A stretch of DNA of 64,000 bases. It comes from an uncultured bacterium. GTDB lineage: Bacteria; Babelota; Babeliae; Babelales; RVW-14. The translations under genes were made by a program, and so were the position numbers. Where the stretch lies: assembly GCA_963759805.1 (NCBI GenBank), contig CAVXAT010000001.1, positions 224,001 to 288,000 on the forward strand, read 5' to 3'. The notes under the pieces are model-generated. The model was not told the origin of the DNA and made no database searches. It saw only the letters and a program-made list of their open reading frames with translations. Of this stretch, positions 15,401 through 44,772 are shown piece after piece (position 1 is the stretch's first letter; every line of letters starts with the position of its first letter).

Positions 15401-18400
15401 GCTGCTTAGTAATAATGTGACTATGACAAGTGCAACGTCATTCAGGGCGACGGGCACAAATGCCGTTCTTACACTTGGTACTGGTATCGCAAACGCATTC
15501 AGCGAAATTGACAATTTGCAGTGGAGTCCTGACGGGAGAAAGTTGGCGGTAGCGGGGCAGACGCGAGCAGTAACATACTCAGCGGGCGTATCTGGTAACC
15601 TTGCAGTGTACCTCTTTTCCGGAACGACAACGTCAACTCTGAGCACTGTAGATTTCTCGGTGACGGCATCTGGGGTTTCATGGAGTCCTGACGGACAGTA
15701 TCTGGCGGCGGGTGGCAAGGTGTATCTGCCGGCATCTTTAGGTCTTTCGGTATCAACATCGAACCTGCAAATTTACTCCGCTGCTAATAACTTTTCTTCA
15801 CCGGTAGTGCAGACAAATCTTGGAACAACCAGAGCCTCATACACTGGACCTGTGAGCTGGAGCCCTGATGGGCGCTATCTGGCAGTTGGTGGCAACATGC
15901 GAAACTTGACGATATACCAGTTTAACGGCAGTGCTTTGAGTCAAGTTTCAGCAACCACTGGCGTATCAGAGGTTCTAGGTATTTCTTGGCATCCAAGCGG
16001 AAAATATATAGCGATTGCTACAAACTCCGCAACGGCAAATAGTATAGCCGTTTATTCTGTTGCTAACGGAGTGCTTGGTGGGTCACCATTATCAACAAAA
16101 AACTATACGGCGGGGTATGGAACAAGTGTTGCATGGAGTCCTGATGGAAACTACTTGGCAACAACAGGGCTGGTTTCGAGTGTCGGTACAATGTATGTTT
16201 ATTCAGTTAATTCAGCGGCTACCACATTGACACAAATTTCAGTTTTATCGTTTGGGACAAGTGCAAGAACGGTAAAGTGGAGCTCGGATGGAAGATTTTT
16301 ACTTGTGGGTGGAAATGATACCGCCTCAAGAGATCTGATACTCTATATAGAATTTCCGTCATTGACTTTCATACAAACAATATCTTTTGGTACATACATT
16401 TATAGTACTGATGTTCATCCAAATGGTCTTTATCTGGCAGCCGGTGGTTATACTACTGCCCCTTCGACACCTTATTATACACTTAATATTGCAAGTATTG
16501 CCTATGGTCAAGAGACGACGCCTCAGGCGATCTCCAATTCGATTGTCTTTGGTAACTCGGCTGCCGGATCAGTATCAGATTTAAGCGTTCAGCTACTTTC
16601 CGGTGCAAACGTCTCAGTCGATGGAATATTGAATTATGATAACACCCTTGGCTACACAATGTTTAGCAACGACAATGCAAGGTTTGTTCTGAAAAACAGC
16701 GCTTCCGAAATTCGCATGACTCCAAACACTGTGGTTGGCTGGAAAAACAGCTCATTAATTGATTCGGTTGCTGGCATTGGGCAGGGTGATTATAACCTAC
16801 TAGCCGACGATGCTAATTTTGATAAAATTTTGCCATTTCAAGGCATCCCAAATACATTGACAAGTCTTGGATGGAACGTTCCTGCCAACACCATAATACA
16901 CATCGACAGCAACACTGTGATTAACGGTAATGGCAATACAATTAACCTTGGCAATAATTCAGAGTTATTTGTTGATGACAATGTGACCTTGACTTTAAGA
17001 AACGTGATTATTAGCAACGCCGAAAATTTTGTAGGAAATCCTGCAATCAAACTTGCATCGAACAGAAGCCAGCTTGTGCTTGATAACTCAACATTAAATA
17101 TTGTTGGTGACTTTTATTTTGATCGCGGTCAACTTTTTGCTTACAACGATGTAAATATAAACGGTACGAGTGCATTTATTTATCGTTCTACAAAACCAAG
17201 TTATATAAAATCAGGTGCAAATCTTAAGTTTAATCCTGGTACGACATTTTCATTTGCGCCATCTACCACCGGTATGCTTGGATTGTTGGCAAAAGATCTA
17301 TTGATAATGAGCGATGCAAGTTCGAAAATTACATTGAATGGAGCAACTCTTAAAACAACATATACCGGATTGCGTTTAACTACAGGGCAGTTGTTACTTG
17401 ATAATAAAGTTTCAATGACGAGCGCTGCTGTTTTGGGGATAACAAGTTTTTACTCCAACATTGTATCATCGCCTAGTTATAATGGCTTCATTTGGTCAGT
17501 TGCATGGAGCCCTGATGGTCGTTATGTTGCATGTGGCGGAGGGACTACAGACAAAGTTAATGTGTATCAGTTTACAGGAACAAGTTTAACGCAAGTAGCA
17601 CAATCTGCATCATACGGCAACACCATTTATTCAGTTGCATGGAGTCCTGATGGTCGTTATGTTGCATGTGGTGGAGCGAATACCAACACGGTTAATGTGT
17701 ATCAGTTTACAGGAACGAGTTTAACACAAGTAGCACAATCTGCCTCATATGTTAATACAATTATATCAGTTGCATGGAGTCCTGATGGTCGTTATGTTGC
17801 ATGTGGAGGAGGGACTAACACGGTTAATGTGTATCAGTTTACAGGAACAAATTTAACGCAAGTTGCACAATCTGCTTCATACGGCGGTAGCATTAGTTCA
17901 GTTGCATGGAGTCCTGATGGTCGTTATGTTGCATGTGGAGGAGGGACTAACACGGTTAATGTGTATCAGTTTACAGGAACAAATTTAACGCAAGTAGCAC
18001 AATCTGCTTCATACGGCGGTATAATTCAGTCAGTTGCATGGAGTCTTGATGGTCGTTATGTTGCATGTGGTGGAGGGACTACCAACAAGATTAACGTGTA
18101 TCAGTTTACAGGAACGAGTTTAACGCAAGTTGCACAATCTGCTTCATACGGCGGTGGCATTATTTCAGTTGCATGGAGTCTTGATGGTCGTTATGTTGCA
18201 TGTGGTGGAGGGACTACCAACAAGATTAACGTGTATCAGTTTACAGGAACGAGTTTAACGCAAGTTGCACAATCTGTTACATACAACGGGCAAATTGAAT
18301 CACTTGCATGGAGTCTTGATGGTCGTTATGTTGCATGTGGTGGACAGAATACCAACACAGTTAATGTGTATCAGCCGCATTATCAAGCAATAGCCACTCC

Positions 18401-21400
18401 CCAAGCAATTTCAAATTCAATCGTGTTTGGTAACTCAGGCTCAGGATCAAGTTATGACTTGAATGTTCAACTACTTTCAGGGGCAAACGTCTCAATCGAC
18501 GGGATTCTAAATTATGACAACACCCAGGGCTACACAATGTTCAGTAATAACAATGCAAGCTTTGTATTAAAAAACAGCAATTCTGAAATTCATATGACCC
18601 CAAACACTGTTGTCGGATGGCAAGACAGCTCTATAATTTCTAACGTCTCAAACGCCGGCTTAGGTGATTACAATTTAATCTCCGATGTGAGTCCAAAAAA
18701 TGCCCAAATTCCAACTAATCTAATAAATTACTCCGGTGTGCCAAATACTTTGGTAGGTTCGAACTGGAACATCCCTGCAAACACAATCGTTCACGTCAGT
18801 AACAATGCAGTGCTTGATGGTAACGGTAACACAATAAGTATTGGTGCCAATTCTGAAATCTTTGTAGATGACACAATAACGTTGACATTGCGTAACGTTG
18901 TAATCAGTAATAATCAGAATTTTGCAAATAATCCGCCGATAGAGCTTGCGACAAGCAGAAGCAAACTTGTTCTTGATAATGCAAGACTGAACTTTGTAAA
19001 TGATTTTTACTTCAACCAGGGCGAACTGTTTTGTTACAACGATGTTAACTTTACGGGAACAAGTTCATTTATTTATCGTTCAACTGTTCCAAGTCAAATC
19101 ATGTCAGGAGCAAATCTTAAATTTAATCCAAAAACTACCTTTTACTTTGAACCTTCCACGAGCGGTACGACCGGACTTTTGGCAAAAGATCTTTTAATGA
19201 TGGGTGATGCGACAAGCAAGATTACACTGGACGGAGCATCGTTGAAAACAACGCTGACCGGCATGCGTCTGACTCAAGGACAGTTGCTGCTTGGTAACAA
19301 TGTTACGATGACAAGTGCAACATCATTCAGGGCCACGGGCACAAATGCCATTCTTACCCTTGGTACCGGTATCGCCAATGCATTCAGAGAAATTGATAAG
19401 TTACAGTGGAGTCCTGACGGAAGAAAACTGGCGGTGGCCGGTCAGACGAGGGAAAAATTACTAGTACAACCAAGTAGCTTATCCGTGTATCTCTTCTCCG
19501 GAACAACGACGTCAACGCTAGCAACTGTCAGCTTTTCAGTGACGGCATCAAGTGTTTCATGGAGTCCTGATGGGCAGTATCTGGCGGCGGGTGGAAAAGT
19601 AAGCATACCGTTATCTTTAACGGTATCAACATCGAACCTACAAATTTACTCTGCTGCTAATAACTTTTCTTCACCGGTAGTGCAGACAAATCTTGGAACG
19701 ACTCGAGCCTCATACACAGGTCCGGTAAACTGGAGTCCTGATGGGCGCTATCTGGCAGTTGGTGGTAATGGGCATGGATTGACGATTTACCAGTTCAATG
19801 GAACTACCCTGAATCAAGTTTCGGCTACGTCTTCAACAGGCCCAGAAGTTTTAGGAATCTCTTGGCATCCAAGTGGAAAATATATTGCTGTTGCAACAAA
19901 TTTCACGGCAGGTGCAGCTGGTGGCATAACGATTTATCCTATTAATAATGGGGTATTGACCACATCTGGTTTACCTTCATCATTTACAAGAACTTATGGA
20001 TCCGCTGGATCCGGTTGTGGAACAAGTGTTTCATGGAGTCCTGATGGAAACTACTTGGCAACAACCGGTCAGGTTACAGGCTTGGCTGGTGGTCCTGGCG
20101 CGATGTATGTTTATGCATTTAATTTGACAGCCCAGTGGACGATGCAAGTCTCAGCGTTACCGTTTGGAACAAGTGCAAGAACGATAAAATGGAGCTCGGA
20201 TGGAAGATTTTTACTTGTGGGTGGTAACGATACTGCATCAAGAGATCTGGTACTCTACATAGAATTTCCGTCATTAACTTTAATAAATATAGTATCTTTT
20301 GGTACGTATATTTATAGCACTGATGTACATCCAAATGGTCTTTATCTGGCAGTCGGTGGTTATACGACCAACCCTTCGAAACCTTATTACACACTTAATA
20401 TTGCAAGTATTGCCTATGGCCAAGAGACGACGCCTCAGGCGATCTCTAACTCAATTGTCTTTGGTAACTCGGCGGCAGGATCAGCATCAGATTTAAGCGT
20501 TCAACTACTTTCCGGTGCAAACGTCTCAGTCGACGGAATAATTAATTATGACAACACCATGGGTTACACAATGTTCAGTAATAACAATGCAAGCTTTGTA
20601 TTAAAAAACAGCAACTCTGAAATTCGCATGCATCCTAATACCGTTATTGGATGGAATGATAGATCCCTTATCAAGAATACAGTTGGAGGTGGGCTTGGTG
20701 ATTATAATCTGGTCTCGTATGCGCCTACTCTGAATAATAATATTGTGAATTATGCAGCAGCTCCTGCCGAACTTGTTTATGATAATAGTAATGCAGTAGT
20801 GGGACTGACGGTAACTGCAAGAACAAATAGTAATGCATTAGTTTATCTGAGAAGAACTACCAGCAATTCAGAAGCATATCTAAGCAGAATGAGCAGCAAC
20901 TCTATTGCATATCTGAGTAGGACGAGTAGTAATTCAATAGCTTATCTGAGTAGAATGACAAGTAATTCGATAGCATGGCTAAGTGGCGTGGAGCGAGGGA
21001 ACAGTAACTTGCTCAGAGTAACGAGTAATGGATTAGTTTATTTGCGAAGGACGACCAGTAATTCAGAAGCATATTTAAGCAGAATGAGCAGTAACTCTAT
21101 TGCATATTTGAGTAGAACGACAAGTAATTCAATAGCTTATCTGAGTAGAATGACAAGTAACTCAATAGCATGGCTCAGCGGTGTGGAGCGAGGGAACAGT
21201 AACTTTCTCAGAATAACAAGTAATGCATTAGTTTATCTAAACAGAACAACAAGTAATTCGATGGCATATTTAAGCAGAATGAGCAGCAACTCGATAGCAT
21301 ATTTAAGTAGGACGAGTAGTAATTCAATAGCTTATCTGAGTAGAATGACAAGTAACTCGATAGCATGGCTAAGTGGCGTGGAGCGAGGGAACAGTAACTT

Positions 21401-25576: not shown

Positions 25577-28378
25577 TTAACTCAACTTAACCAAGTTAAC
25601 AATTTCCTGTTCAAGGGTTGGCAGCTTACCTTGTCCGCCGCCTTGAATAAACTCTTCGTTTCCGCCGCTGCGAATATTAAATTTATTTTTCAATAACTCA
25701 GATAACGCTTTCAAGCTTATTTTATTTTCAGATTTTTTTGATTGATACGCAATGACTGAAAAATTGTCTGAATTACTGGTTTTATTCAAGATAACGTATA
25801 ATCCGGGTTTGTGTTTTTCAAAATCAGTACAGATTGATTTCATCTCTTGGTTAGGCAAGTCTTCAATTTCAAGATAAACAAATGGAACTTTGCCGATAAC
25901 TGTAATTTTATTTTGCCATTCAATAATCTGAGATTTCATTAACTGCTTGCGAAGCTGTTTGATCTGGCTTTGAGATTCAAGATAACGTTCTTGCAGTTTA
26001 TTGACAGCATCATAAACCTCTTCGAATTTTGTTTTAAAATCTTCGCTGAGTTTTTTAACAGTTGTGAAGGACTGCTGAAAAAGTTTGACAGCCTCATGTC
26101 CTGTTACACCGGTAATTCTTCGCACACCGGTTGAAAGGGCGGTTTCGCTTACAATCTTAAAACAACCTATGATTCCGGTGCTTGGGGCATGTACGCCTCC
26201 ACAGAGTTCCGTGGAAAATCCGGGAACCTGGACGACACGAACTTTTTCAGGGTTGTATTTTTCACCGAAGAAAGCCATTGCTCCGGCAGTCTTTGCCTCT
26301 TCCAGTGTTGAGTAGAAAATCTTTGTCTGAATATCTTCTTGAATTTTTTGGTTTACAAGATCTTCAACGGCTTGGATCTGCTCGTGCGTTAATGCTTGCT
26401 GATGTGAAAAATCGAATCTGAATGATTCTGCGCAGACGGATGAACCCGCTTGCTTTATGCCGCTGCCTAAAATTTGGATCAGGGCAGCCTGAAGCAGGTG
26501 TGTGGCGGTGTGATTTTTTACTGTGTTGATTCTTGAGAAGTAATCGACAATGCAGTGTGCGCTGTCGCCGACTTTGATGTCGGAAATTATCTGTGACTCG
26601 CATCCTTCGACAGGCTCCCAGGCTTCGCCCTTAGTGGCTACGCCGGGCACGGCAGGACGATCCTTCGACAGGCTCAGGATGAGCGGCCTGCTTGCCTGGG
26701 CGCCGTAGCTATCCAAGCGAAGGCGGCTCGAACCATCACGCAGTGACGCGCCTGGTTCAGTAGTTAGTGAAACTTTTACGGCAATTGCAGGGTGATTTAC
26801 ATTTCCAAGTTTTTGCAAAGCGAGTACGGGCAGGGCGTGTTCTTTTATTGTCACCCAGCCATTATCTCCAATTTGACCTCCGGACTCAACATAAAATGGG
26901 GATTTATCAGTAATAATCCACGCTGTCTGATCACTGTTTTTCTGTACGAATATTATTTTTGCTTTTGCTTCAAGATCTGTGTACCCAACGAATTCAGTCG
27001 ATGTTCCAGCAGGGATAGCTCCCTCATTAAGCTTTTCATTTTCACCATCATGCTTTTTACCGGATTGCTCACGTTGTTTGTCCATCTCTTTTTCAAAAGC
27101 CTCCATATCCAACGTGAGGTTCTGTTCATGTGCCAAGACTTTTGTTAATTCCGGTGGGAACCCGTAGGTGTCATAAAGTTTAAAAATTTGTTGTCCTGAA
27201 AGAAATAGCTGTCCGTCTTTTTTATTATCTTCAACGTATTTTGTAAAAATATTTTGACCTTGTACTAAGTTGATTGCAAATTTTTCAACTTCGCTATCAA
27301 GTGTTGTAGCGATGAGTTTAGTACCGGCTCCCAACTCGGGATAGACGGGGGACATCTGTTTTATAAATCTTTTTGAGAGTTTAGATAAAAGCTGTTTGTC
27401 GTCAGAAAGTTTTTGTGCAAACATAGCAGCACGACGAATAATTTTGCGTAGAACATAACCGCGACCTTCATTTGATGGCGTGCAGCCGTCTGCAATTAAA
27501 AAGGATGAAGAGCGGACATGGTCGCATAAAACATTGAATGCTGCTTTAATTTTTTCAGGGCTTTGGTTGTAACTGAAATTTGTTATTTTTTCTATCTCAT
27601 CGATGATATCGGCAAAAAGGTCTGTTTCAAATACTGACTCTTTACCCTGAACGACGCAGCATAGACGCTCAAGTCCCATTCCGGTGTCCACACCTGTTTT
27701 GGTCAGCGGCTTTAATTCACCATTTGATTGACGGTCATACTGCATGAACACAAGGTTCCAGATCTCCATAAATCTGTCGCAATCACATCCCGGGGCACAA
27801 TCTTTACTGCCGCAACCGCGTTCTATCCCTTTGTCGATGTATATTTCGGTGCATGGTCCGCATGGACCGGTGTCTCCCATCTGCCAGAAATTATCCTTTT
27901 CGCCAAGTCGTCGGATGCGTGTTGCAGGAAGCCCGACAACTTTATTCCAAATTTCAAAAGCTTGGTCGTCTGTTGTAAAGACGGTGGCATAAAGCTTATC
28001 TTTGGGTAATCCTATCTCTTTTGTTAAGAGTTCCCAGGCAAAGCCGATTGCCTCCTTTTTGAAGTAGTCGCCGAATGAAAAATTTCCGAGCATCTCAAAA
28101 AATGTTAGGTGTCTGGCCGTAAATCCTACATTTTCTAAATCGTTGTGTTTTCCGCCTGCTCGTACACACTTTTGAGAAGATGTAGCTCGGGTATAAGATC
28201 TTTTTTCTTTACCCAAAAAAATATCTTTAAATTGGTTCATGCCTGCGTTGGCAAAAAGAAGTGTTGGATCCTGTGCCGGAATAAGTGATGAACTGGCTAC
28301 AACGGTGTGACCATTTTTTGCAAAAAAATCCAAGTACTTTTTGCGTAATTCGAATGATTTCATTAGACTTCCTATCAA
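25577..28378 (-). CDS. alaS: Alanine--tRNA ligase with an in-frame ~55-aa palindromic-element insertion
   Basis: DPTLLFANAGMNQFK, HLTFFEMLGNFSFGDYFK, NHTATHLL, ELCGGVH editing motifs. Confidence 0.97.
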   Translation of the reverse strand: MIGSLMKSFELRKKYLDFFAKNGHTVVASSSLIPAQDPTLLFANAGMNQFKDIFLGKEKRSYTRATSSQKCVRAGGKHNDLENVGFTARHLTFFEMLGNFSFGDYFKKEAIGFAWELLTKEIGLPKDKLYATVFTTDDQAFEIWNKVVGLPATRIRRLGEKDNFWQMGDTGPCGPCTEIYIDKGIERGCGSKDCAPGCDCDRFMEIWNLVFMQYDRQSNGELKPLTKTGVDTGMGLERLCCVVQGKESVFETDLFADIIDEIEKITNFSYNQSPEKIKAAFNVLCDHVRSSSFLIADGCTPSNEGRGYVLRKIIRRAAMFAQKLSDDKQLLSKLSKRFIKQMSPVYPELGAGTKLIATTLDSEVEKFAINLVQGQNIFTKYVEDNKKDGQLFLSGQQIFKLYDTYGFPPELTKVLAHEQNLTLDMEAFEKEMDKQREQSGKKHDGENEKLNEGAIPAGTSTEFVGYTDLEAKAKIIFVQKNSDQTAWIITDKSPFYVESGGQIGDNGWVTIKEHALPVLALQKLGNVNHPAIAVKVSLTTEPGASLRDGSSRLRLDSYGAQASRPLILSLSKDRPAVPGVATKGEAWEPVEGCESQIISDIKVGDSAHCIVDYFSRINTVKNHTATHLLQAALIQILGSGIKQAGSSVCAESFRFDFSHQQALTHEQIQAVEDLVNQKIQEDIQTKIFYSTLEEAKTAGAMAFFGEKYNPEKVRVVQVPGFSTELCGGVHAPSTGIIGCFKIVSETALSTGVRRITGVTGHEAVKLFQQSFTTVKKLSEDFKTKFEEVYDAVNKLQERYLESQSQIKQLRKQLMKSQIIEWQNKITVIGKVPFVYLEIEDLPNQEMKSICTDFEKHKPGLYVILNKTSNSDNFSVIAYQSKKSENKISLKALSELLKNKFNIRSGGNEEFIQGGGQGKLPTLEQEIVNLVKLS
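26596..26760. repeat. Composite nested palindromic element inside alaS
   Basis: GC-rich ~165 bp, nearly identical to 31743-31908; contains CCTTCGACAGGCTC twice plus two type-B hairpins. Confidence 0.92.
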
Positions 28379-29289: not shown

Positions 29290-29446
29290 TATCGATTGTT
29301 CAAGGAAGTTGATAGATCTCGTGCTCGAGCTGATCATAAGGGATCGTGCCATAGTTTGAGACTATCAACTTACATTAAACAACCTCGAACAATCACTTGA
29401 GACGTATTGGGTACGATCTCGCATGTTTACAAGCCAGAGGTAATCG
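29290..29446 (+). ncRNA. IS110 bridge RNA (target-binding and donor-binding loops); ends approximate
   Basis: A 10-bp stem 29306-29315/29362-29371 encloses GCTCGAGCT and GCCATAG. Stem ACCTC/GAGGT encloses ACAATCACT and TACAAG, which match the element's own ends. Confidence 0.85.
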
Positions 29447-29448
29447 TT

Positions 29449-30384
29449 ATGGTATCAAATATATATGTAGGCGTCGATATTTCTAAAAACAGCTTAGATA
29501 TTTGCATTTATCCTGAAAAAACACTCTTAAAAATAGACAACACAGAAGCTGCGATACAGGGTTTCATTAAAAAAATAGCCCAGCAAGATATTGCACAAAT
29601 AGCATGTGAAGCAACAGGAGGATATGAAAAGCTGCTTGCAACGCTGCTAAAAAAGAATGGCTACAACCTTTGGATTATTGATCCGAGGCGAATAAGGGGT
29701 TTTATTGTTTCAACTGGATGCAAAAGCAAAAACGATAAAATTGATGCACGAAAAATTGCTGAATTTTGTTCTAAAAATACGCGTGGCTATTCGACGGTTG
29801 AAAAAACTGAGAATCAAGCCAAATTGCAAGCTCTCGTTAATCGTAAAAACGATCTTACCAAGTTTTTGGCTGCGGAAAAAACAAGATTAAAGCAACCTTC
29901 ACATGCAATGAGTTTACCGAGCATTAAACGTTTGATTAAAATTTTTACCGCAGAAATCAAGACGGTAGATACGCAAATATCTGGCTTACTCAAAAACGAT
30001 AGCGAACTTGGTCAAAAAGCTGAGATTTTAGAATCTATACCTGGAATTGGAATTGCCTCTGCAGCTCTTCTTTTATCACATGTTCCAGAGCTTGGAACAA
30101 TAAGTAACAATAAAATATCGGCTCTTGTTGGTGTGTGTCCATATGACAATGAAAGCGGTAAATTCAAGGGTAAGAGAAGAATTCGGGGAGGACGGATGAC
30201 CCCGAGAAATCAGATTTACATGTGCGCATTAACAACCATTAAACATAACCTAATTCTTAAAGCCTTTTATGATCGCTTGATAAAAAATCAAAAACCGTTC
30301 AAAGTGGCCATAGTTGCCGTTATGCGCAAACTAATTATTCTTGCCAATTCGCTGTTAAAAAGAGGCGAGTTATGTAAAGTTTAA
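29449..30384 (+). CDS. IS110-family DEDD recombinase/transposase (311 aa)
   Basis: GVDISK, CEATG, KNDKIDA (DEDD), SIPGIG, NESGK (Tnp serine), AIVAVMRKL. ATG at 29449 follows GAGG. Confidence 0.95.
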   Translation: MVSNIYVGVDISKNSLDICIYPEKTLLKIDNTEAAIQGFIKKIAQQDIAQIACEATGGYEKLLATLLKKNGYNLWIIDPRRIRGFIVSTGCKSKNDKIDARKIAEFCSKNTRGYSTVEKTENQAKLQALVNRKNDLTKFLAAEKTRLKQPSHAMSLPSIKRLIKIFTAEIKTVDTQISGLLKNDSELGQKAEILESIPGIGIASAALLLSHVPELGTISNNKISALVGVCPYDNESGKFKGKRRIRGGRMTPRNQIYMCALTTIKHNLILKAFYDRLIKNQKPFKVAIVAVMRKLIILANSLLKRGELCKV

Positions 30385-30430: not shown

Positions 30431-30513
30431 ATGGCGGACAAGTCGCCGGCACAGCAGGATGAGCGCTCATGGTGAGCCTGTCGAACCATGGCGAACAAGT
30501 CGTCTGGCAAGCC
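30431..30513 (+). repeat. Right part of the nested REP-like cluster
   Basis: ATGGCGGACAAGT-CGCCGGCACAGC-AGGATGAGCG-CTCATGGTGAGCCTGTCGAACCATGG..., made of type-A and type-B pieces. Confidence 0.8.
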
Positions 30514-31740: not shown

Positions 31741-33522
31741 AAACTCGCATCCTTCGACAGGCTCCCAGGCTTCGCCCTTCGTGGCTACGCCGGGCACCGC
31801 AGGACGATCCTTCGACAGGCTCAGGATGAGCGGCTTGTTTGCCTGGGCGCCGAAGCCTTGGCGAAGGCGGCTCGAACCATCACCCCTTGGTGACGCGCCG
31901 GGTTTCAGAAGCAGTTCGGTGTGTTTTTTGTGATACAGGAAAGATTCGTAATTTCCCGGGTAGTTAATGACTCCTTGTGGCATTAGTTCTAAAACTCTGC
32001 TGGCAAGGCCGTCTACAAACGTTCTATCATGTGAAACAAATAAAATAGTTCCGGGATACTGATTTAATGCTTTTAATAAAATCTCTTTTGTCTGAAGGTC
32101 AAGGTGGTTAGTCGGTTCATCAAGAACCAGAAAGTTGGCATCCAGAAGTAGCGTTTTTACCATTGCTACTCGGTTTTTTTCTCCGCCGCTGAGCACCGAT
32201 ATCCTCTTTTCAACATCATCGCCTGAGAACAGAAATGCACCAAGCAAACCGCGTACGTGTGATCGCATTTCCGACGTTGTGCATATGCTCTCCACCTCTT
32301 CCAAAATTGTTCTATTTTTATCAAGCGTTAACTCTTGATCCTGTTCAAAAAAAGCCATCTCAACGTTGTGTCCAAACTTTAGCGTACCACCCTCCAGGGG
32401 ATATTTCCCTGCAATTAAATTCAACAGGGTGGTTTTGCCCTTTCCATTTGCAGCTACCAGCGCTACTTTATCACCGCGCATAATATCAAACGAAACGTTT
32501 GCGAATAACTCAGTAGAATCAAACGTTTTTTTTAGATTGCTAACTTTGAGTACGATATCACCCGAGCGTTTAATATTTGAAAAATTAAGTTTAATCGTAG
32601 GAGGTTTGGGTTCAACTTGAATAAGCTCAATTTTTTCAAGAGCTTTGAGCATGCTTTGTGCCATGCTTGCCTTTGTGGCCTTGGCTTTAAAACGATTAAT
32701 CGTCTCCATCGTCTTTTTAATATGTCTTTGTTGAGCTTCATACTGAGCCTGCAAAACTGCATCATCATTAGCCTTTTGCTCCAGATATTTTGTATAATTA
32801 CCACGATAAATTTTTAAATTTCCTCGATCGATATCAAAAATATACTGGCAGAGGTGATCCAGAAAATAGCGATCGTGACTTATAAGAATAAAACCAAAAT
32901 TGGCGTATTTTAAAAAATCCAAAAACCAGTCTTTTGCAACGATATCAAGGTGGTTTGTAGGCTCGTCAAGAAGATAGAAATCTGCTTTTTGTAGAAGTAA
33001 TTTTGCAAGTACAATTCGCATTTTCCAACCAACGCTGAGCTCGCTGACCGGCTTGCCAATTTTTTCTGATGGAAATCCAAGCATAGACAGCATCTTTTTT
33101 GTTTCAACTACGCACTGGTCAAAGTCGTGCTCAGATAACTCTTTTTGTAAAAAAGCAAAGCGTTCAAGTTTCTCAGGGGTGTGTGCCGATTCATGCTCAA
33201 ACTCAGAGTTGAGTAAATCAAATTCAAGCTTCAAATCTACTAAATTACCAAATGTTGTTAGTGTTTCTTCAATAACAGATCTATTGGAGACTAGGACGAC
33301 TTCTTGCGGGAAATAGGCAATTTTAACTCGTTTCTCAATCAGAATGGTTCCGCTGTCAATTCCTTGCTGTCTGCTCAAAACTTTGAGTAGTGTTGATTTT
33401 CCACTTCCATTTCTACCGACAAGCCCGATTCTTTGGTTTTTTTCAATAGAGAAAGAGAGATCTTTAAATAACTCACGTTGTCCAAATTCAAGGCAGATAT
33501 TAGAGGCTGTTATCATCTTCAA
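31726..33522 (-). CDS. ABC-F family ATPase (Uup/YheS/YdiF-like), ending just after a palindromic insertion
   Basis: Two ABC domains (GRNGSGKS, LSVGW, LLDEPTNHLD; AANGKGKT, LSGGE, LDEPTNHLD), YRGNY linker. Confidence 0.92.
   Translation of the reverse strand: MKMITASNICLEFGQRELFKDLSFSIEKNQRIGLVGRNGSGKSTLLKVLSRQQGIDSGTILIEKRVKIAYFPQEVVLVSNRSVIEETLTTFGNLVDLKLEFDLLNSEFEHESAHTPEKLERFAFLQKELSEHDFDQCVVETKKMLSMLGFPSEKIGKPVSELSVGWKMRIVLAKLLLQKADFYLLDEPTNHLDIVAKDWFLDFLKYANFGFILISHDRYFLDHLCQYIFDIDRGNLKIYRGNYTKYLEQKANDDAVLQAQYEAQQRHIKKTMETINRFKAKATKASMAQSMLKALEKIELIQVEPKPPTIKLNFSNIKRSGDIVLKVSNLKKTFDSTELFANVSFDIMRGDKVALVAANGKGKTTLLNLIAGKYPLEGGTLKFGHNVEMAFFEQDQELTLDKNRTILEEVESICTTSEMRSHVRGLLGAFLFSGDDVEKRISVLSGGEKNRVAMVKTLLLDANFLVLDEPTNHLDLQTKEILLKALNQYPGTILFVSHDRTFVDGLASRVLELMPQGVINYPGNYESFLYHKKHTELLLKPGASPRGDGSSRLRQGFGAQANKPLILSLSKDRPAVPGVATKGEAWEPVEGCEFQKRY
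31743..31908. repeat. Composite nested palindromic element, second copy
   Basis: Near-identical to 26596-26760; bracketed by the inverted repeat CTTCTGAAAC (31735-31744)/GTTTCAGAAG (31902-31911). Confidence 0.92.
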
Positions 33523-36753: not shown

Positions 36754-36815
36754 AGTTAGCTTATTGATTTTAAATTAATTTACGCCGGAGGAAGTAGTAA
36801 AAGCCTTGGCGTTTT
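36754..36815 (+). repeat. Intergenic repeat/terminator-like hairpin, copy 1 of 3
   Basis: 39 bp identical to 39106-39144. Confidence 0.85.
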
Positions 36816-36841
36816 CTTTCTTAATTTTGTTTGGGAGCATT

Positions 36842-39094
36842 ATGAATATTTATTTTAGAAAAAACAGAGCATTGATTTCAAAAGTATTGCTGATAATTTT
36901 TGGTGCGAATTTTGGATTATCTTTTTTAGCCGCTGAGACGCAAGCATCTGGGGTACAAACATCCAGCGGGGTACAGACATCAAGCGCTGTGGATAATCGA
37001 CAAACCGTTTATTCGAAAATTTCGGATATGCATATGCCTTCTGTAAAAATGGAGGATTCTAAAGAGCAATCTGAAATGAAAAAAAAACAGGAGGAGAACG
37101 ATAAAGCTTATAATGAGATGCTGACCAATGCAAAGTTTAAAGAGATTAAAATTCCTGCAGTTGGGGATATTGAAAAGCTAAGATTGATATATCAGCTTTT
37201 TCATGGGCGCAGTTTGCAGCTCAATGATGTTATTGGTTGTAGTCGTCCGGTTCTTAATGACAATGTTTTTACCGATTTGCAGATCTACTGTGGTTCGATG
37301 ACCGATTTAAAGCACCATGTTTTTGGGGTTATTGATAATACAGTTACAAGTTTTGGTAAAGTTGAGTTACAACGCTTTTTATATCAAAGGTCTGATTCTG
37401 TTGAACAACTTAAATATGAAATTAAGAATAGGCAGGATATTGTAAAATACCTGGTTGAAAATCCATTTTTGTGCGACAAAATTGAAAAGCAGCTTAAAAT
37501 TGTTAAGCAGGGTGAGACGGATATGCTCTGGTTTTGGAAGGCGTTGGAATTTTCAATCCAAAAATATACTGAGCAGTATTATTTTAAGGGATTTTTGTCC
37601 GGATTAAATGAATCCACAGGGCCTCTTGAACTCCAATCTCTTATGACTACAGTTGTTGCTCCTGCAGACGTAGCTCTTATGGATGCTTTTATGGTAGGAG
37701 TTGGCGCAATTGTGTTGTATAAAGCTTCAAGAGTAGAAAACCTTTGGGCTATGGGTGGGGCAGTTGCCTACTCTGGCCTTTTACTTTTTGGCTCTTATAT
37801 GATGACAAGTATGATTCTTGGATTGGTTCAAACTTTCAATGGCATAACAAATGATATTCAGGATAAGCTGGCAAGTACGGCAAGAATAACGCAAGCTTCT
37901 GCAGCGCTTGCAAAAATTCTAGCTTCTGATGCCAAAATGCCAGTGCTTTGGGATAATTTCAAGAAACTGCAAACAAGTGCGATGCAGGCTCAAGATGGTC
38001 GTGATTTACAAGATCTGTTAAAAAAATTACAGGCAGGAACATTTAAAAGCGAACCTTCATATTTTTCGAACAAAGGGCGAGTGCTGGCGACTTGTAAAAA
38101 GATGTTGCGCTTGAAAGACAATTTTATCAATTCGATTAAGGCCATCGGCGAACTTGATGCATATCTCTCGATTGCAAAGCTCTATTTAAAACATGTAAAC
38201 AATTCTAATGCAAAATACTGCTTTCCTGAAATTATTGAATCAGACAGGCCGTATGTTAATGTAAGCAGAATGTGGCATCCATTTCTTAATCCTGACAAAG
38301 TTGTTACTAATGATATTGAACTTGGACAGGATCAGGCTCAACGAGACTCGTCTCAAAATGTTATTTTGACAGGTCCGAATGCTGCGGGTAAATCAACATT
38401 CTTAAAGGCTTTCACAGTCTCATTAATTTTGGCACAGTCTTTTGGTATAGCTCCTGCCAGTGCAATGAGATTTACCCCATTCATTAAAATCAATACTTAT
38501 TTAAATATATCAGATGAAGAGGGTAGGGAGTCGTTGTTTCAGGCCGAAATGCGACGAGCTCAAGAGCTACTTCGTTCAATCAAGGGGTTGAAAAAAGGTG
38601 AATTTAGCTTTGTTATTATGGATGAAATTTTCACTGGCACAAATCCAAAAGAAGGAACTGCGGGTGCATATGGGGTGGCAAAGAGCGTGTCTAAATATCT
38701 ACAATCAATCTGTATTGTTGCAACACACTTCAAGAAACTTACAGAACTTGAAGAGGATACGAATGGAAGATTTAAGAATTACAAAGTCTATGTAAATAAA
38801 TCTGATACGGGTGATATTGATTATCCTTATAAAGTTGTGCCTGGAATTTCAGATCAAACAATAGCGTTACTGTTATTGGAGAAACAGGGCTTTGATCGAG
38901 AGATTTTGGATGAGGCTTATAAAGCGTTTAATGATGATGAATATGTTCTTGATAGCGTGAAGGGTGAACCTGCTAAACTGGTTCGTGTAGTTGATTTAGG
39001 GGCTGAAGCTGGTGAATATGTTCTTGATAGCGTGAAGGGTGAACCTGCCAAATTGGTTCGTGTAGTTGATTTAGGGGCTGAAGCTGCAGCGTGA
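36842..39094 (+). CDS. MutS-like ATPase (core + ATPase domains only) with signal-like N-terminus and two TM segments
   Basis: LTGPNAAGKST, SLFQAEM, MDEIFTGTN, VATHF; no mismatch-binding domain; duplicated 25-aa C-terminal peptide. Confidence 0.85.
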   Translation: MNIYFRKNRALISKVLLIIFGANFGLSFLAAETQASGVQTSSGVQTSSAVDNRQTVYSKISDMHMPSVKMEDSKEQSEMKKKQEENDKAYNEMLTNAKFKEIKIPAVGDIEKLRLIYQLFHGRSLQLNDVIGCSRPVLNDNVFTDLQIYCGSMTDLKHHVFGVIDNTVTSFGKVELQRFLYQRSDSVEQLKYEIKNRQDIVKYLVENPFLCDKIEKQLKIVKQGETDMLWFWKALEFSIQKYTEQYYFKGFLSGLNESTGPLELQSLMTTVVAPADVALMDAFMVGVGAIVLYKASRVENLWAMGGAVAYSGLLLFGSYMMTSMILGLVQTFNGITNDIQDKLASTARITQASAALAKILASDAKMPVLWDNFKKLQTSAMQAQDGRDLQDLLKKLQAGTFKSEPSYFSNKGRVLATCKKMLRLKDNFINSIKAIGELDAYLSIAKLYLKHVNNSNAKYCFPEIIESDRPYVNVSRMWHPFLNPDKVVTNDIELGQDQAQRDSSQNVILTGPNAAGKSTFLKAFTVSLILAQSFGIAPASAMRFTPFIKINTYLNISDEEGRESLFQAEMRRAQELLRSIKGLKKGEFSFVIMDEIFTGTNPKEGTAGAYGVAKSVSKYLQSICIVATHFKKLTELEEDTNGRFKNYKVYVNKSDTGDIDYPYKVVPGISDQTIALLLLEKQGFDREILDEAYKAFNDDEYVLDSVKGEPAKLVRVVDLGAEAGEYVLDSVKGEPAKLVRVVDLGAEAAA
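38939..39085 (+). repeat. 75-bp tandem duplication encoding EYVLDSVKGEPAKLVRVVDLGAEA
   Basis: Copies start at 38939 and 39014; a third copy is at 42011. Confidence 0.95.
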
Positions 39095-39207: not shown

Positions 39208-40428
39208 GTGATGAGAAATACTTTTGAGCGTTGGTTTTTTAGATTAGCGTTGCTGTCTTTTTTATTACTAAATTCTTTGTGCTTAAACGGCATGGCTTCG
39301 AGTGCTGGTACTGAGCAGCAACAAATCCCAGCAGACCAAAAAGAAGAGTTATCTGAGCTCAATAAAGAGTTTGGGACTGTAGCTGCTGAGTTTGACAAAG
39401 AGCTTCCAGCATTACAGTCATTAAGAGAAGAGTTTAGTAAATTTTTAGATGATGTAGATTTGAATGATTCTGGATGGTTTAAGGATTTTAGAAACAAAGT
39501 ATTGTATGAATTGCCGACAGAAGGCTCTTTTACTATGGGCATTTATGGTGAAGATGTTTTACATTTACTGTTTTTAATTGCATATGTCTTTGTTGATAAG
39601 ATTTTTTTTGATAATGTGAAAAAGTATTATTTCCAAATGGTTTCTAGTAATTTCAAAGAAAAACGAGAATTGTTGCGATCTTGTTATAATGAAATTTCCG
39701 GCTTGGAGACAAAGAAATTCTTAGAAAATTCAAAATTAAAACAAAAATTCATAAAAGATTGTTGTTCTAGTTTGAATATCGATCGAGGCCTTGATTATAG
39801 GCTGTTCTCTAACATTTTTATTAATCTGTTTTTTAAAGAGATAGTTAAGTTCTTTGAACATCAGGTATTTCCCTTCGGCAATACAGGATTCTTTGCACTT
39901 TTAAGAAAGGAAAAAAAGAATGCGGAACGCCATGTTGTTTCTCTTTATCCGTTTATTGAATTCTATTTGAAGCCGTATTTTTTTGGAATAACTCCGTTTG
40001 TAGAAGATAAAATGCCTGTGGTGAGGGGCTTTTTGCTTCGACTGGTTGGATGGGATTATAAAATTTTATCGTCGTATGGTTTTGATTTGTGCAAACGAAC
40101 TATGGTTTTAGGGATATTTTTGAAGAGATTAACCGTGTGGTATCAAAACTTATTTAAAGTCTATCTTGATAAAAATATGGAACTATTTTTAAAGATTTTA
40201 TCAGATTTAAATGCGACAAGTGCAACGGATGATGAGCATTTCAAGGCAGCGGAAACAGAACTTAAGGATTTTATTACAAAGGGCTTTGAGTGCTCTTTTA
40301 AAACATGGTTTGATTATAAAAATAGCTGCTGTGCTAACTTTGGTCTGCTATTTGAAACGGTGCTATTATTGCCGGCTATTTGTAAGGGTGGAAAATTAAT
40401 TTACGATAATTATGCTGCGAAAGGTTAA
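39208..40428 (+). CDS. Hypothetical protein with signal peptide
   Basis: 406-aa ORF, hydrophobic N-terminus, overlaps the next gene. Confidence 0.7.
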   Translation: MMRNTFERWFFRLALLSFLLLNSLCLNGMASSAGTEQQQIPADQKEELSELNKEFGTVAAEFDKELPALQSLREEFSKFLDDVDLNDSGWFKDFRNKVLYELPTEGSFTMGIYGEDVLHLLFLIAYVFVDKIFFDNVKKYYFQMVSSNFKEKRELLRSCYNEISGLETKKFLENSKLKQKFIKDCCSSLNIDRGLDYRLFSNIFINLFFKEIVKFFEHQVFPFGNTGFFALLRKEKKNAERHVVSLYPFIEFYLKPYFFGITPFVEDKMPVVRGFLLRLVGWDYKILSSYGFDLCKRTMVLGIFLKRLTVWYQNLFKVYLDKNMELFLKILSDLNATSATDDEHFKAAETELKDFITKGFECSFKTWFDYKNSCCANFGLLFETVLLLPAICKGGKLIYDNYAAKG

Positions 40429-42091
40429 GTATATGGATTTTGTAAGTAAGTGGAGAGAGCGCTTAGGTTGTAGTGGATATTTTAAGATTTTGATATTTGG
40501 CTTAGGGTTTACGTGTTTAAATAACGCTTATGCAATGCAAGGTGGGCATGGAATTCAAGATGCGAAGTGGTTACAGGATTTAGCTAAGGAAATGGAGAGA
40601 GCGGGAGAGAATTTTGCCAGGGAGAGAGAGGATCACAAGCGAGAGAATGCACATCAAGAAGAATGGTTAGTTGATGAGATACGAAATTTGAAAGCGAATG
40701 GTGTTGACGATAGTGATCCACGAATAAAGCAGGCAGAGAGAAGAATCGGAGAATTAGCTCAGGAAAAACAGACGCAAGATAAGATTGGTGATTTCGGGCT
40801 AGATGTTGTAAAGGGAGTTTGGGGCGCTGTTTTGGGGGATTATAACAAAGAGCAACGTATTGAAGAGGTGCAGAGAAAAGCATTGGCGGATGGTTTTATG
40901 AATAATAAAGGAGCAAGAGAGCGCCTGCAAGCGCTTATGGACCGGATGAAGGATCCAGAGCAGTTATTAAAGTTTGCTATTTTTGCTGCCGGTGTAACAC
41001 TCGGCGTTGTTGGTGTTTATTACGTGGTCAAATTATTTTATCAGTATGTTGAAGCCAGAATGGGCAAACCAAATCTTGTTAGAGAGTCTTCAATTCATGG
41101 ATTTAAACAGGCATTGAAGAAATTCGTGATTTCGATTTTCAGCGGCGAACAGGATCTTGAAGCTGTTCTGAGTGATATTATTTTATCACCTGACATTCAG
41201 GAGAAAGTTTACTTGTTGGCAGATGACACGAAGAACACAAAAGAGTTTAATTTGCCATACCAAAACGTTTTATTTTACGGTCCTCCGGGAACAGGTAAAA
41301 CAGAGTTTGCAAAAATTCTTTCAAGATATTCAGATATGGATTATGCAGTACTTTCGGGCGCCGATTTTAGTCAGTTTAAAAACGGAGAAGGCATTACAGA
41401 GTTGCATAAGTTATTTGAATGGGCAAATAAGAGTAAGCGCGGTTTGATTATTTTTATAGATGAGGCGGATGCCTGTTTTAGAGATCGTGCAACGCTTGAT
41501 AAGGATGGTGTCAATCTTGTTAACGCTTTCTTGTCTCATACGGGATCAAGCTCTGATAAATTTATGATTATTCTTGCTACAAATTATGAAAATGAGCTTG
41601 ATGCAGCGGTTAGAAGCCGTATTCACAAAAAGGTTCCATTCCTATTACCGGCACTTGAAGAACGCTTTAAAATTTTTAAGTTAAAACTTACAAAGTATGT
41701 TCTTAACGATAAGCGTGCTTATTACAAAGAGGGTGTTTGGGTTGAAGAACATCTTGAAGTTGAGGCTGCAGTGGATGATGCATTCTGGAGAGAGATCTCT
41801 ACGCGAACTGAAGGCTTTTCTGGCCGTGACATAGACCAAGCGATTGGTGAAATTAGATTGCGTGCGTATCGTTCAGGCGCTAATCTTGTGACAAAAGAGA
41901 TTGTCGAAACCGTTATTAAAGATAAAATTGCTCAGATAAAGAAAGATAAAGAGTCAACAGAGTATCAAAAGCAGAAGTTTGAGCATATGTTTAATATTCA
42001 TAAGAATGATGAATATGTTCTTGATAGCGTTAAAGGCGAACCTGCTAAATTAGTCCGTGTATCTGATTTGCCAGCTGATGCTCTTGCTTAA
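40412..42091 (+). CDS. ATAD3-like AAA+ ATPase
   Basis: Coiled coil, TM helix, YVEARMGKPNLVRESS, NVLFYGPPGTGKT, MDYA, LHKLFEWA..SKRGL.IFIDEADA, NAFL..TG..S.KFM. Confidence 0.85.
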   Translation: MLRKVKYMDFVSKWRERLGCSGYFKILIFGLGFTCLNNAYAMQGGHGIQDAKWLQDLAKEMERAGENFAREREDHKRENAHQEEWLVDEIRNLKANGVDDSDPRIKQAERRIGELAQEKQTQDKIGDFGLDVVKGVWGAVLGDYNKEQRIEEVQRKALADGFMNNKGARERLQALMDRMKDPEQLLKFAIFAAGVTLGVVGVYYVVKLFYQYVEARMGKPNLVRESSIHGFKQALKKFVISIFSGEQDLEAVLSDIILSPDIQEKVYLLADDTKNTKEFNLPYQNVLFYGPPGTGKTEFAKILSRYSDMDYAVLSGADFSQFKNGEGITELHKLFEWANKSKRGLIIFIDEADACFRDRATLDKDGVNLVNAFLSHTGSSSDKFMIILATNYENELDAAVRSRIHKKVPFLLPALEERFKIFKLKLTKYVLNDKRAYYKEGVWVEEHLEVEAAVDDAFWREISTRTEGFSGRDIDQAIGEIRLRAYRSGANLVTKEIVETVIKDKIAQIKKDKESTEYQKQKFEHMFNIHKNDEYVLDSVKGEPAKLVRVSDLPADALA

Positions 42092-42111
42092 GAAAGAACG
42101 AAAGTTGGTTT

Positions 42112-42165
42112 GTTAGTTTTAAATTAATTTGCACCGGCGGAAGTAATAAAATCCGCCGGTTTTTT
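42112..42165 (+). terminator. Intergenic repeat/terminator, copy 3 of 3
   Basis: ACCGGCGGA...TCCGCCGGT followed by a T-run; shares TTTTAAATTAATTT with copies 1 and 2. Confidence 0.8.
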
Positions 42166-42175
42166 ACACTTTATA

Positions 42176-42222
42176 CCGCTCGTCCTGAGTGATTTGCGTA
42201 GCAAATCGTATCGAAGGATGCG
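42176..42222 (+). repeat. 47-bp palindromic repeat (type A), left arm flanking the GIY-YIG gene
   Basis: Exact reverse complement of 42599-42645. Confidence 0.95.
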
Positions 42223-42296
42223 AGTTGTCACTCAGCATGAGCGGAATCGTATCGACGGATGAAGCGGCGTCAACGCAGTGCACTGATGGGAGAGAT

Positions 42297-42590
42297 ATGG
42301 AATATTTTTATGTCTATATTTTAAAATGCAGCGATGGATCTTACTATACTGGGCACACCGACAACATTGAAGCACGTATATCTCAGCATCAACAAGGCTT
42401 GATAAAAAGTTGTTATACTGCAACCCGGTTACCGGTAATTGTTGTTTTTGTTCAAACATTTGGAAGCAGGAATGAAGCATTTATTGCTGAACGCAAAATA
42501 AAGGGTTGGTCGAAATCCAAAAAAGAGGCTTTAATAAGGGGGGATTGGGGATTGATTTCATTTTTATCAAAAAAAATATTTTTAAAATAA
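42297..42590 (+). CDS. Small stand-alone GIY-YIG nuclease (UPF0213/YhbQ-like, 97 aa)
   Basis: FYVYILKCSDGSYYTGHT, R..QH, YT..RLPV, EA..AERKIKGWS..KKEALI; ATG after GGGAGAG. Confidence 0.9.
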   Translation: MEYFYVYILKCSDGSYYTGHTDNIEARISQHQQGLIKSCYTATRLPVIVVFVQTFGSRNEAFIAERKIKGWSKSKKEALIRGDWGLISFLSKKIFLK

Positions 42591-42598
42591 ATGTTGGC

Positions 42599-42645
42599 CG
42601 CATCCTTCGATACGATTTGCTACGCAAATCACTCAGGACGAGCGG
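42599..42645 (-). repeat. 47-bp palindromic repeat (type A), right arm flanking the GIY-YIG gene
   Basis: CGCATCCTTCGATACGATTTGCTACGCAAATCACTCAGGACGAGCGG. Confidence 0.95.
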
Positions 42646-42767
42646 CCAGTGATGGTATGTCGGGATGGGTAGTCAAAAAATTTGCGAATTCCAGGTTGGT
42701 GCAAATCCCAGATTAGGTGGAAAAAATCTATGTCTGACTGTTATAACGAACGTGCACGCTTAGGGCT

Positions 42768-42800
42768 TTTAAAAAAATTAGGGCCGCAACTCGCGGCCCT
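42768..42800 (-). terminator. dnaK terminator
   Basis: AGGGCCGC-GAGTT-GCGGCCCT then AATTTTTTT on the minus strand. Confidence 0.7.
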
Positions 42801-42840
42801 TTGAAACGATTACTTCAGAATATTTATTTTCTTAGTTTGC

Positions 42841-44772
42841 TTACTTCTTTTCTTCGAAGTCTGTGTCGATTGGTTTGTCATTTGGGTTACTGTTCTCGCC
42901 GGATTTATTGTCATCGGTGCTTTGGTTACCGGAAGTTTGTTGCCCTTCGGGGCCAGCCTGTTGCTGCTTCTCTTTGTATAAAATTTCGGCAATTTTGTAC
43001 GATGCTTGAATCAGATCATCAGCTGCTTTTGCAAGTGCTTGTGCATCATTCTCATTTTCTTTAAGCGCTTTTTTAGCAGTTTCAATTGCAGCTTCGACAC
43101 TGTTTACTTCAGCGATTGGAAGTTTGTCTTTGTTCTCTTTGATTGTCTTTTCGATCTGCATGATTGTACTGTCCAGATGATTGCGCTTGTCGACAACTTC
43201 GCGTTGTTTTTTGTCATCTTCCGCATGTAGTTGTGATTCTTTTACCAGCTTATCAATCTCTTCTTTGGAAAGACCTGAGGATGATGTTATTGTGATGTTT
43301 TGTTCCTTGCCGGTTCCAATATCTTTTGCCGATACGTGAACTATACCATTTGCATCGATGTCGAATGTTACTTCGATTTGTGGCATGCCGCGTGGGGCTG
43401 AAGGGATTCCATCTAATCTGAATCTACCTAGCGTTTTATTATCTTTGGCAAATTCTCTTTCGCCTTGTAGAACATGGATGTCAACAGCAGTTTGATTATC
43501 TTCAGCTGTTGAGAAAGTTTGTGATTTTTTTGTTGGAATAGTAGTGTTACGTTCAATGATTTTTGTTGATACGCCGCCCATTGTTTCAATACCAAGTGAG
43601 AGGGGGGTTACATCGAGCAACAGCACGTCCGTTACATCTCCGCCCAGAACGCCGCCTTGAATTGCAGCTCCGACAGAGACAACTTCATCGGGGTTTACAG
43701 ATTTATTTGGCTCTTTGCTAAAGAAATCTTTAATCATAGATTGTACTTTGGGGATTCGGGTTGAACCACCAACCAATATTACCTCTTGAATTTCTTTGGT
43801 TGTAAGCCCTGCGTCAGCGAGTGCCTTTTTGCATGGTTCGAAGAGCTTGTTGAAAATATCTTGGCAAAGATTTTCAAATTTTGCTCTGGACAATTTGAGT
43901 GTCAAATGTTTTGGGCCGGTTGCATCTGCGGTGATATATGGAAGATTGATTTCAGTTTCAGTTGTAGAAGATAGCTCGATTTTGGCTTTTTCGGCAGCCT
44001 CTTTTAGTCGTTGTAGTGCAAGTTTGTCTTTTTTTAAATCGATACCATTTTCTTTTTTAAATTCATCTACTAAGAAATTTATAATTTTTTCATCGATATT
44101 GTCACCACCGAGCATTGTGTCGCCATTTGTGGATTTAACTTCGACTACTCCATCGCCAACTTCTAATACTGATATATCAAATGTTCCTCCACCGAAGTCA
44201 AAAACTGCAATTGTTTCGTTTGTTTTTTTATCCATCCCGTAGGCGAGTGCTGCGGCAGTTGGTTCGTTGATGATTCGTTTTACGTCTAGGCCCGCGATTT
44301 TACCGGCATCTTTGGTCGCTTGACGTTGTGCGTCATTGAAGTATGCGGGAACGGTGATAACTGCAGAGACAATTTTTTCGCCCAGATAATCCTCGGCCGC
44401 TTGTTTTAATTTCTGCAGAACGGCTGAAGATATTTCTTGTGGTGAAAGCTGCTTGCCTTGAATTTCGATTGCAACGTCGCCATTACTGGCTTCAACCATC
44501 TTATATGGGACAAGATGCTTTTCCTCGCTGGTTAAACTTGAAAATTTGCGGCCAATGAATCTTTTGGCAGAATAAATTGTGTTTTCTGGGTTTGTTATTG
44601 CTTGACGCTTTGCAATTGCGCCGACTAAACGTTGTCCGTCTTTTGTGAATGCAACGATGGATGGGGTTGTGTTGGCACCCTCCTGGTTTGGGATGACTTT
44701 GAAAGTTCCCGCTTCCATTACTGATACAACCGAGTTAGTTGTACCTAGATCTATTCCTATAATTTTTGCCAT
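42841..44772 (-). CDS. dnaK: Chaperone DnaK (Hsp70)
   Basis: [34 protein letters not shown]. Confidence 0.98.

Follow-up and report, generated by a model that had tools for sequence, protein, structure and literature searches.

Small GIY-YIG nuclease genes enclosed by inverted, tagged hairpins: a candidate nuclease-repeat pair beside Ssn

Background

The closest described counterpart of the locus reported here is Ssn, a group of GIY-YIG nucleases of the cd10448 clade whose genes lie between inverted SRM/NTS hairpins (Chenal et al. 2025, PMC11893778). According to the accessible text of that paper, SsnA cuts only single-stranded DNA, a few nucleotides upstream of the tagged NTS hairpin, and Ssn recognizes its single-stranded target by both sequence and structure. 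An IS-like layout and an IS-like origin were proposed for Ssn by its authors, and the role shown for SsnA in N. meningitidis is the limiting of transformation, not the movement of repeats. An earlier note on the present DNA had treated a GIY-YIG gene within inverted hairpins as a possibly undescribed type of mobile unit; in principle this is not new, since both the layout and its IS-like reading appear in the same accessible text (PMC11893778).

Like Ssn, the present locus consists of a single-domain GIY-YIG gene of ~95 codons inside inverted, tagged hairpins that are dispersed in the genome. Its repeat, termed here motif A, differs from SRM in its tag (CG(C/T)TC versus HGTC), in a stem with tandem GA and in a loop that is often replaced by nested hairpins.

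Two other repeat systems are comparable. The CGTC-tagged REPs carry the tags CGTC, TGTC or CCTC and a CCA tail, and no transposase is reported for them in the accessible text of Di Nocera et al. 2013 (PMC3733652). They have in common with motif A that they are tagged hairpins, occur in inverted pairs and lack a RAYT. Their stem of 8-9 bp and loop of 4-5 nt compare with eight stem positions, two of them G.A, and a 5-nt loop in minimal motif A, and the arms of the present locus contain a 22-nt hairpin insert. Judged by that text, motif A differs in its tag, in the lack of a CCA tail and in a stem interrupted by GA. In the REPtron/RAYT-REPIN systems, as here, an enzyme gene lies inside inverted genome repeats, with gene-less inverted pairs elsewhere, but the enzyme of the present system is a GIY-YIG hydrolase and not an HUH/Y1 transposase, there is no GTAG tag and no RAYT was found. 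A literature search, which covered few subscription papers, returned no description of motif A or of the gene clade (clade A) that accompanies it, and a keyword search of 14 Ssn supplements (PMC11893778) for cd10456, UPF0213, cd10449 and YhbQ gave 0 matches.

Results and discussion

The 470-bp unit and its nested repeats

The window, i.e., the whole 64,000-nt stretch of DNA that was analyzed, belongs to a genome of 1.50 Mb with ~37% GC and an estimated completeness of 88.7%. The features of the locus are as follows.

42133..42165, plus strand: terminator-like hairpin and T run, 3' of the AAA ATPase gene (context, outside the unit; direct reading)
42176..42222, plus strand: left arm, motif A, tag outward (direct reading and inverted-pair search)
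42177-42181, 42182-42185 and 42186-42189: tag CGCTC, arm GTCC and core TGAG of the left arm
42190-42211, 42212-42215 and 42216-42219: loop insert, core CGAA and arm GGAT of the left arm
42229..42244, minus strand: orphan 5' half (tag, arm ATGC, TGAG) of the middle nested motif-A copy
42245..42267, plus strand: orphan 3' half of the outermost nested motif-A copy
42297..42590, plus strand: GIY-YIG gene, 97 aa, single domain, clade A (UPF0213-like)
42599..42645, minus strand: right arm, motif A, tag outward, exact inverse of the left arm

The perfect inverted pair described in the earlier note is present as stated, with 47-bp arms (42176-42222 and 42599-42645) that are 100% complementary across a spacing of 376 nt; the eight other inverted pairs in 41500-43500 (12-24 nt) are all imperfect. 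Also confirmed was the internal hairpin GATTTGC-GTA-GCAAATC, which occupies 42191-42207 inside the left-arm loop insert. The unit begins 11 nt beyond the terminator-like hairpin (which a hairpin search with a loop limit of 8 nt did not list) and is bordered by the AAA ATPase gene with that hairpin on one side and by the 3' end of a convergent dnaK-like gene, so labeled from reading the sequence, on the other. A promoter scan gave three sites versus 1.9 expected, an uninformative difference, and no target duplication was visible at the unit ends on direct reading of the locus.

In the paralog of the unit on contig C9 (88% identical) and at a further locus (L012), three nested motif-A copies precede the gene. 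At 42176-42645 the innermost copy alone is whole and the two outer ones are reduced to orphan halves; the 3' half of the middle copy, absent here, is present in both. The partial copy noticed earlier at 42245-42261 does exist, as a 17-nt match, but not as an isolated degenerate repeat: it and 42229-42244 are what remains of two outer nested copies, one half of each, and both copies are complete in the C9 paralog and L012. Moreover, the left loop of the unit equals its right loop and not the loop type of the paralogs. We infer that the left end of the unit was reset at the inner tag and that the right arm served as the template for the left one, which would explain the perfect 47-bp match. Beyond the right arm (42599..42645), similarity to the C9 paralog and L012 stops within 0-3 nt. 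At another locus, L316, the inverted symmetry continues for ~20 nt beyond either tag, so that the unit there is part of a longer palindrome.

The GIY-YIG protein

The 97-aa ORF at 42297-42590, previously read as a GIY-YIG protein, indeed matches Pfam PF01541 (E 6.9e-17), and GGGAGAG lies just 5' of its ATG. Its predicted structure has a pLDDT of 90.5, and residues Y7, Y17, G19, R27, H31 and E65 are invariant across 42 homologs, such that the protein resembles Ssn in being a small, single-domain GIY-YIG protein with intact catalytic residues. The best matches, by both sequence and fold, are the UPF0213 proteins BH0048 of B. halodurans (1ZG2), EF2693 of E. faecalis (1YWL) and B. subtilis YazA (59 bits by BLAST); Slx1, to which the protein had initially been likened, comes behind them. 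A search of NCBIfam assigned no family to the protein, and clade A may correspond to the CDD label cd10456 (UPF0213). The closest named homolog locus is that of a Candidatus Babeliales MAG (82% identity). With a clade-A profile, 116 sequences were retrieved at E up to 1e-30 among 1.84 billion representatives clustered at 50% identity; a search of viral contigs gave 10 pattern matches with no relative among them, and a search of E. coli genomes for distant DNA similarity gave no match.

A longer, GTG-initiated ORF of 133 aa (start at 42189) was rejected as the gene model: it passes through the repeat, and most homologs start at the matching Met.

The hairpin repeat

Motif A begins with the 5' tag CG(C/T)TC, followed by a 4-nt arm; two YGAR segments, which form a tandem-GA core, then enclose a variable loop, and the complementary arm closes the hairpin. 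The minimal form of the motif is ATCC-TGAA-CTTGT-TGAA-GGAT. The conserved portion is the tag, arm and GA part, and the GATTTGC hairpin proved to be a swappable loop insert. The loop measures 5 nt in 99 of 222 copies and 4-63 nt in the others, where it is frequently a nested hairpin. Covariation was assessed on these 222 gene-proximal copies, scored without a pairing requirement, against 1000 partner shuffles. Arm positions 2-4 pair in 195, 192 and 195 of the copies (shuffle means of 137, 130 and 143), and these positions, as well as both pairs enclosing the GA/GA core, exceed all 1000 shuffles, in a set that includes non-independent kin and at least one locus present in both input sets. Two-sided swaps occur (C-G/G-C, T-A/C-G and G-C/A-T); position 1 of the arm shows no covariation (168 versus 171). 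The hairpin fold is therefore conserved, and its GA/GA core may form sheared pairs. In both arms the calculated folding energy is somewhat lower for the tagged strand (-9.3 and -15.4 kcal/mol) than for the opposite strand (-8.6 and -13.1 kcal/mol, respectively). At 60 of 84 loci the left and right copies agree in tag, arm and core (7.7 when shuffled), and at 31 of the 84 they agree in the loop as well (1.6 when shuffled).

The genome contains 89 motif-A matches, compared to 3, 1 and 0 in three dinucleotide simulations, and only two SRM matches. Members of the repeat family had been reported inside alaS, inside an ABC-F gene and beside the transposase-like ORF at 29407-30384, which the earlier note labels IS110, and all three were recovered:

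26602..26685, minus strand: composite with a dispersed motif-A copy, in the alaS reading frame
30464..30489, plus strand: dispersed motif-A copy (arm ATGG), 3' of the 29407-30384 ORF
31749..31832, minus strand: composite with a dispersed motif-A copy, in an ABC-F-like reading frame

Both composites are in frame and add similar peptide inserts to the encoded proteins. In some motif-A copies a second type of hairpin is inserted within the TGAG core. In sphingomonad genomes there are inverted motif-A pairs that lack the gene, again with their tags outward.

Three nuclease clades and their flanking repeats

The genome contains six PF01541 matches: two of clade A, one of clade B, two of clade C (one truncated at a contig end, the other short) and a 606-aa frame taken to be UvrC. 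For comparison, 149 loci were drawn from the best 150 of 522 PF01541 matches in 151 genomes of the phylum, chosen by Pfam score and not by their flanks; together with five loci of the genome itself, this best-150-of-522 set comprises 83 clade-A, 24 clade-B and 47 clade-C genes. We added 80 named clade-A loci (one frameshifted locus was dropped) and 80 metagenome relatives of the clade-B paralog. The named clade-A hosts include Pseudomonadota, Chloroflexota, Myxococcota and Nitrospirota. In quick trees each clade falls on one side of a branch, with SH-aLRT values of 88, 93 and 99 for A, B and C (86, 96 and 99 in a second tree). Ssn was anchored by proxy, with GIY-YIG genes from 10 NTS-rich genomes replacing the Neisseria protein itself; the NTS-flanked genes among them (L407, on both sides, L409 and L411) fall in clade B.

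Flanking repeats were counted within 300 nt on each side, excluding loci with <150 nt of flank on either side. Motif A is found near 60 of 77 clade-A genes of the phylum set (best 150 of 522), at 45 of them on both sides with tags outward, and near 65 of the 72 named cross-phylum clade-A genes (both sides in 32), related genomes not being independent in these counts; the pattern was derived from clade-A flanks, and its frequency in that clade is therefore partly circular. By the same count it occurs near 1 of 23 Ssn-type clade-B genes of the phylum set (best 150 of 522), 0 of 70 from metagenomes and 2 of 44 clade-C genes; shuffled flanks yield 0-0.4 loci. The published SRM pattern is distributed in the opposite manner, near 0/77 and 1/72 clade-A genes (1 of 149 overall), 6/23 and 29/70 clade-B genes and 0/44 clade-C genes, and none was found in 42101-42700. 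A relaxed clade-B pattern, with a shuffle background of 2-7 loci, was left out of these main counts. With the pattern used, 17 of 77 and 7 of 72 clade-A genes have no motif A within 300 nt; in some of these the repeat lies inside the tail of a read-through ORF, and in others, e.g., L406, there is none. Two expectations of the earlier note are thereby borne out: homologs are bracketed by the repeat, as inverted, tag-outward motif-A copies around clade-A genes, and the type of repeat tracks the nuclease clade, motif A accompanying clade A and SRM clade B.

The clade-B paralog of the genome, L003 (G000:C1:132827-133285), is an Ssn-type gene whose perfect inverted arms, each of 37 bp, belong to a second repeat family (TGTCATCCTGAA...TTCAGGATCC). 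This family has 71 half-site matches in the genome and is mostly missed by the strict SRM pattern. Clade C consists of ~80-aa GIY-YIG genes, those of the genome being at C18:49169 and C5:3782 (L004 and L005). In the best-150-of-522 set with the genome's own loci, a tRNA gene lies at most 450 nt upstream of 34 of 47 clade-C genes, versus 0 of 83 in clade A and 0 of 24 in clade B, and 22 of 47 clade-C loci carry a GC-rich hairpin of their own upstream of the gene; clade C is possibly a third nuclease-repeat pair.

Distribution, possible mobility and proposed mechanism

A clade-A gene (E<=1e-22) is present in 50 of the 151 phylum genomes, in 1-5 copies per genome at unrelated sites. The median number of motif-A matches is 48 in genomes with the gene and 1 in those without, counts in which some overlapping matches are scored twice and for which the reversed control gives 0-4. 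At least 20 matches are found in 37 of the 50 genomes with a clade-A gene and in 9 of the 101 without a detected one; these nine, which reach 80 matches, are all drafts, and loss of the gene is possible. In every family (10/10) and every genus (10/10) that includes genomes of both kinds, counts are higher where the gene is present. Repeat abundance thus tracks the presence of the clade-A gene, and the pairing of gene and repeat holds at the level of both clade and genome.

Where close copies occupy different sites, the shared sequence mostly begins at or a few nucleotides from the tag and extends from tag to tag, so that the ends of the unit lie at the tags; the exceptions among close pairs have longer common flanks (local duplications) or align poorly. 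In the dnaK loci of 29 relatives there is no GIY-YIG gene within ~1.5 kb of the 3' part of dnaK. They do not provide a clean empty site, as they also have no AAA gene beside dnaK, and AAA matches in genomes of the same genus are only 36-44% identical, with no syntenic relative retaining both neighbors. Among the sequencing runs listed there are five of DNA, with small shares, and none of RNA, and no contig from them spans the unit. A check for a RAYT, as called for in the earlier note, found none in this 89%-complete genome (best RAYT model score of 34 bits versus a cut-off of 80). Of five Y1 matches, the four that were scanned fit the IS200 model and none reaches the RAYT cut-off, and there is no motif A within 4 kb of any of the five Y1 transposase genes.

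Our preferred reading, to which we assign a probability of roughly 0.6, is that a clade-A gene and its own hairpin constitute a unit, that the protein binds and nicks the hairpin in single-stranded DNA, and that the unit and its gene-less copies could spread in this manner. By analogy, the 97-aa protein would work like Ssn: it would bind the tagged motif-A strand when single-stranded, read the tag and the GA-containing stem, and nick just 5' of the tag, single-strand binding and cut position being carried over from SsnA. This part of the proposal we consider quite probable. As the two outward-facing tags lie on opposite strands, nicks of this kind would define each end of the unit. Nicks on both strands, combined with host repair or template switching, might then copy and homogenize the arms, which is the least certain step; the odds that nicking drives copying seem to us about even. 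We know of no strand-transfer activity for a lone GIY-YIG domain, and host enzymes would therefore have to do the joining. Clade A and motif A are likely to represent a second candidate nuclease-repeat pair beside Ssn.

Alternatively, the protein may be a cognate single-strand nuclease and not a mover, i.e., a domesticated filter on incoming DNA or an enzyme that clears hairpins at forks, the repeats being spread by recombination or by riding on IS-derived miniature elements. We regard this as unlikely. Filtering is the role demonstrated for SsnA in N. meningitidis in the accessible text (PMC11893778), and repeat-rich genomes with no detected clade-A gene exist, but the few copies at unrelated sites, in only a third of the genomes (50/151), look mobile and not like a fixed host gene, and the ends at tags and the matched arms look like those of a moving unit.

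Relationship to Ssn and UPF0213

Rather less probable is that clade A is a divergent member of Ssn for which the SRM pattern is too narrow. The size, layout and tag-outward orientation are the same, and minimal motif A closely resembles the Ssn-type repeat of the genome (ATCCTGAA-loop-TTCAGGAT), from which only two stem bases, the tag and the tail set it apart. A topology test does not reject clades A and B as sister groups (p-AU 0.60), and the strict SRM pattern misses many clade-B loci (29 of 70 matched). On the other hand, clade A and the Ssn-type clade B form long, separate branches. The 97-aa protein scores 33-37 bits against the NTS-flanked proteins (versus 97-112 bits for L003), lower than against YazA; the corresponding BLAST E values, 1e-5 to 5e-4 at a nominal database size of 1e6, lie outside the E<1e-10 to SsnA used in the paper's accessible text (PMC11893778), the NTS-flanked proteins standing in for SsnA. 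The spacing from the first to the second tyrosine is 10 in the 97-aa protein and 11 in L003 and in SsnA (Y6, Y17). Judged by clade and SRM flanks, with proxy proteins, the 97-aa gene thus appears not to be an Ssn gene. Common descent of the clade-A and clade-B systems is nevertheless plausible, given the closeness of minimal motif A to the clade-B repeat and the A+B clade that is not rejected.

Very improbable, in our view, is that the hairpins are RNA elements (terminators, stabilizers or autoregulatory sites) or landed by chance around a UPF0213 repair gene: G-T pairs and tandem GA form in RNA too, the repeats are abundant and the nearest solved relatives are UPF0213 proteins, but the right arm has its tagged strand antisense to the mRNA, motif A does not flank the clade-B and clade-C genes of the same genomes, the UPF0213/YazA-like loci outside clade A belong to another branch and have motif A at 0 of 10 (L391, L402-L405, L408, L410, L418, L420 and L421), yazA itself lies between genes of a housekeeping operon, and none of the seven Rfam matches in 41900-43000 reaches the gathering score.

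Returning to the reading of a nuclease paired with its own hairpin, a broader version can be offered tentatively, and we hold it to be possible rather than probable: small GIY-YIG nucleases might constitute a general class of repeat mobilizers parallel to the RAYTs, with at least two clades (Ssn and A) and possibly a tRNA-linked third, each with its own tagged single-stranded hairpin, and the 470-bp tag-to-tag unit might be an autonomous mobile element whose nuclease has no known transposase fold.

A very common repeat is hereby paired with a candidate enzyme, motif A reaching ~200 pattern matches in genomes of 1-1.7 Mb and inserting in frame into genes. The question of what spreads non-GTAG REPs becomes testable with the 97-aa protein and an oligonucleotide of ~30 nt. 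If the proposal is correct, site-specific single-strand nucleases would extend beyond cd10448, with a different target recognized via a tandem-GA stem, and the freely replaceable loop would suit single-stranded DNA tools. One genome that harbors both nuclease-repeat pairs provides a natural test of orthogonality.

Additional observations in the window

The MutS-like ORF at 36806-39094 and the AAA ATPase at 40412-42091 end in the same peptide of ~25 aa (EYVLDSVKGEPAKLVRV...), which is doubled in the MutS-like ORF and is perhaps a shared C-terminal tag. At 12498-24152, an ORF of 3884 aa contains WD40-like repeats and long serine/asparagine-rich tandem repeats, labels that derive from reading the sequence.
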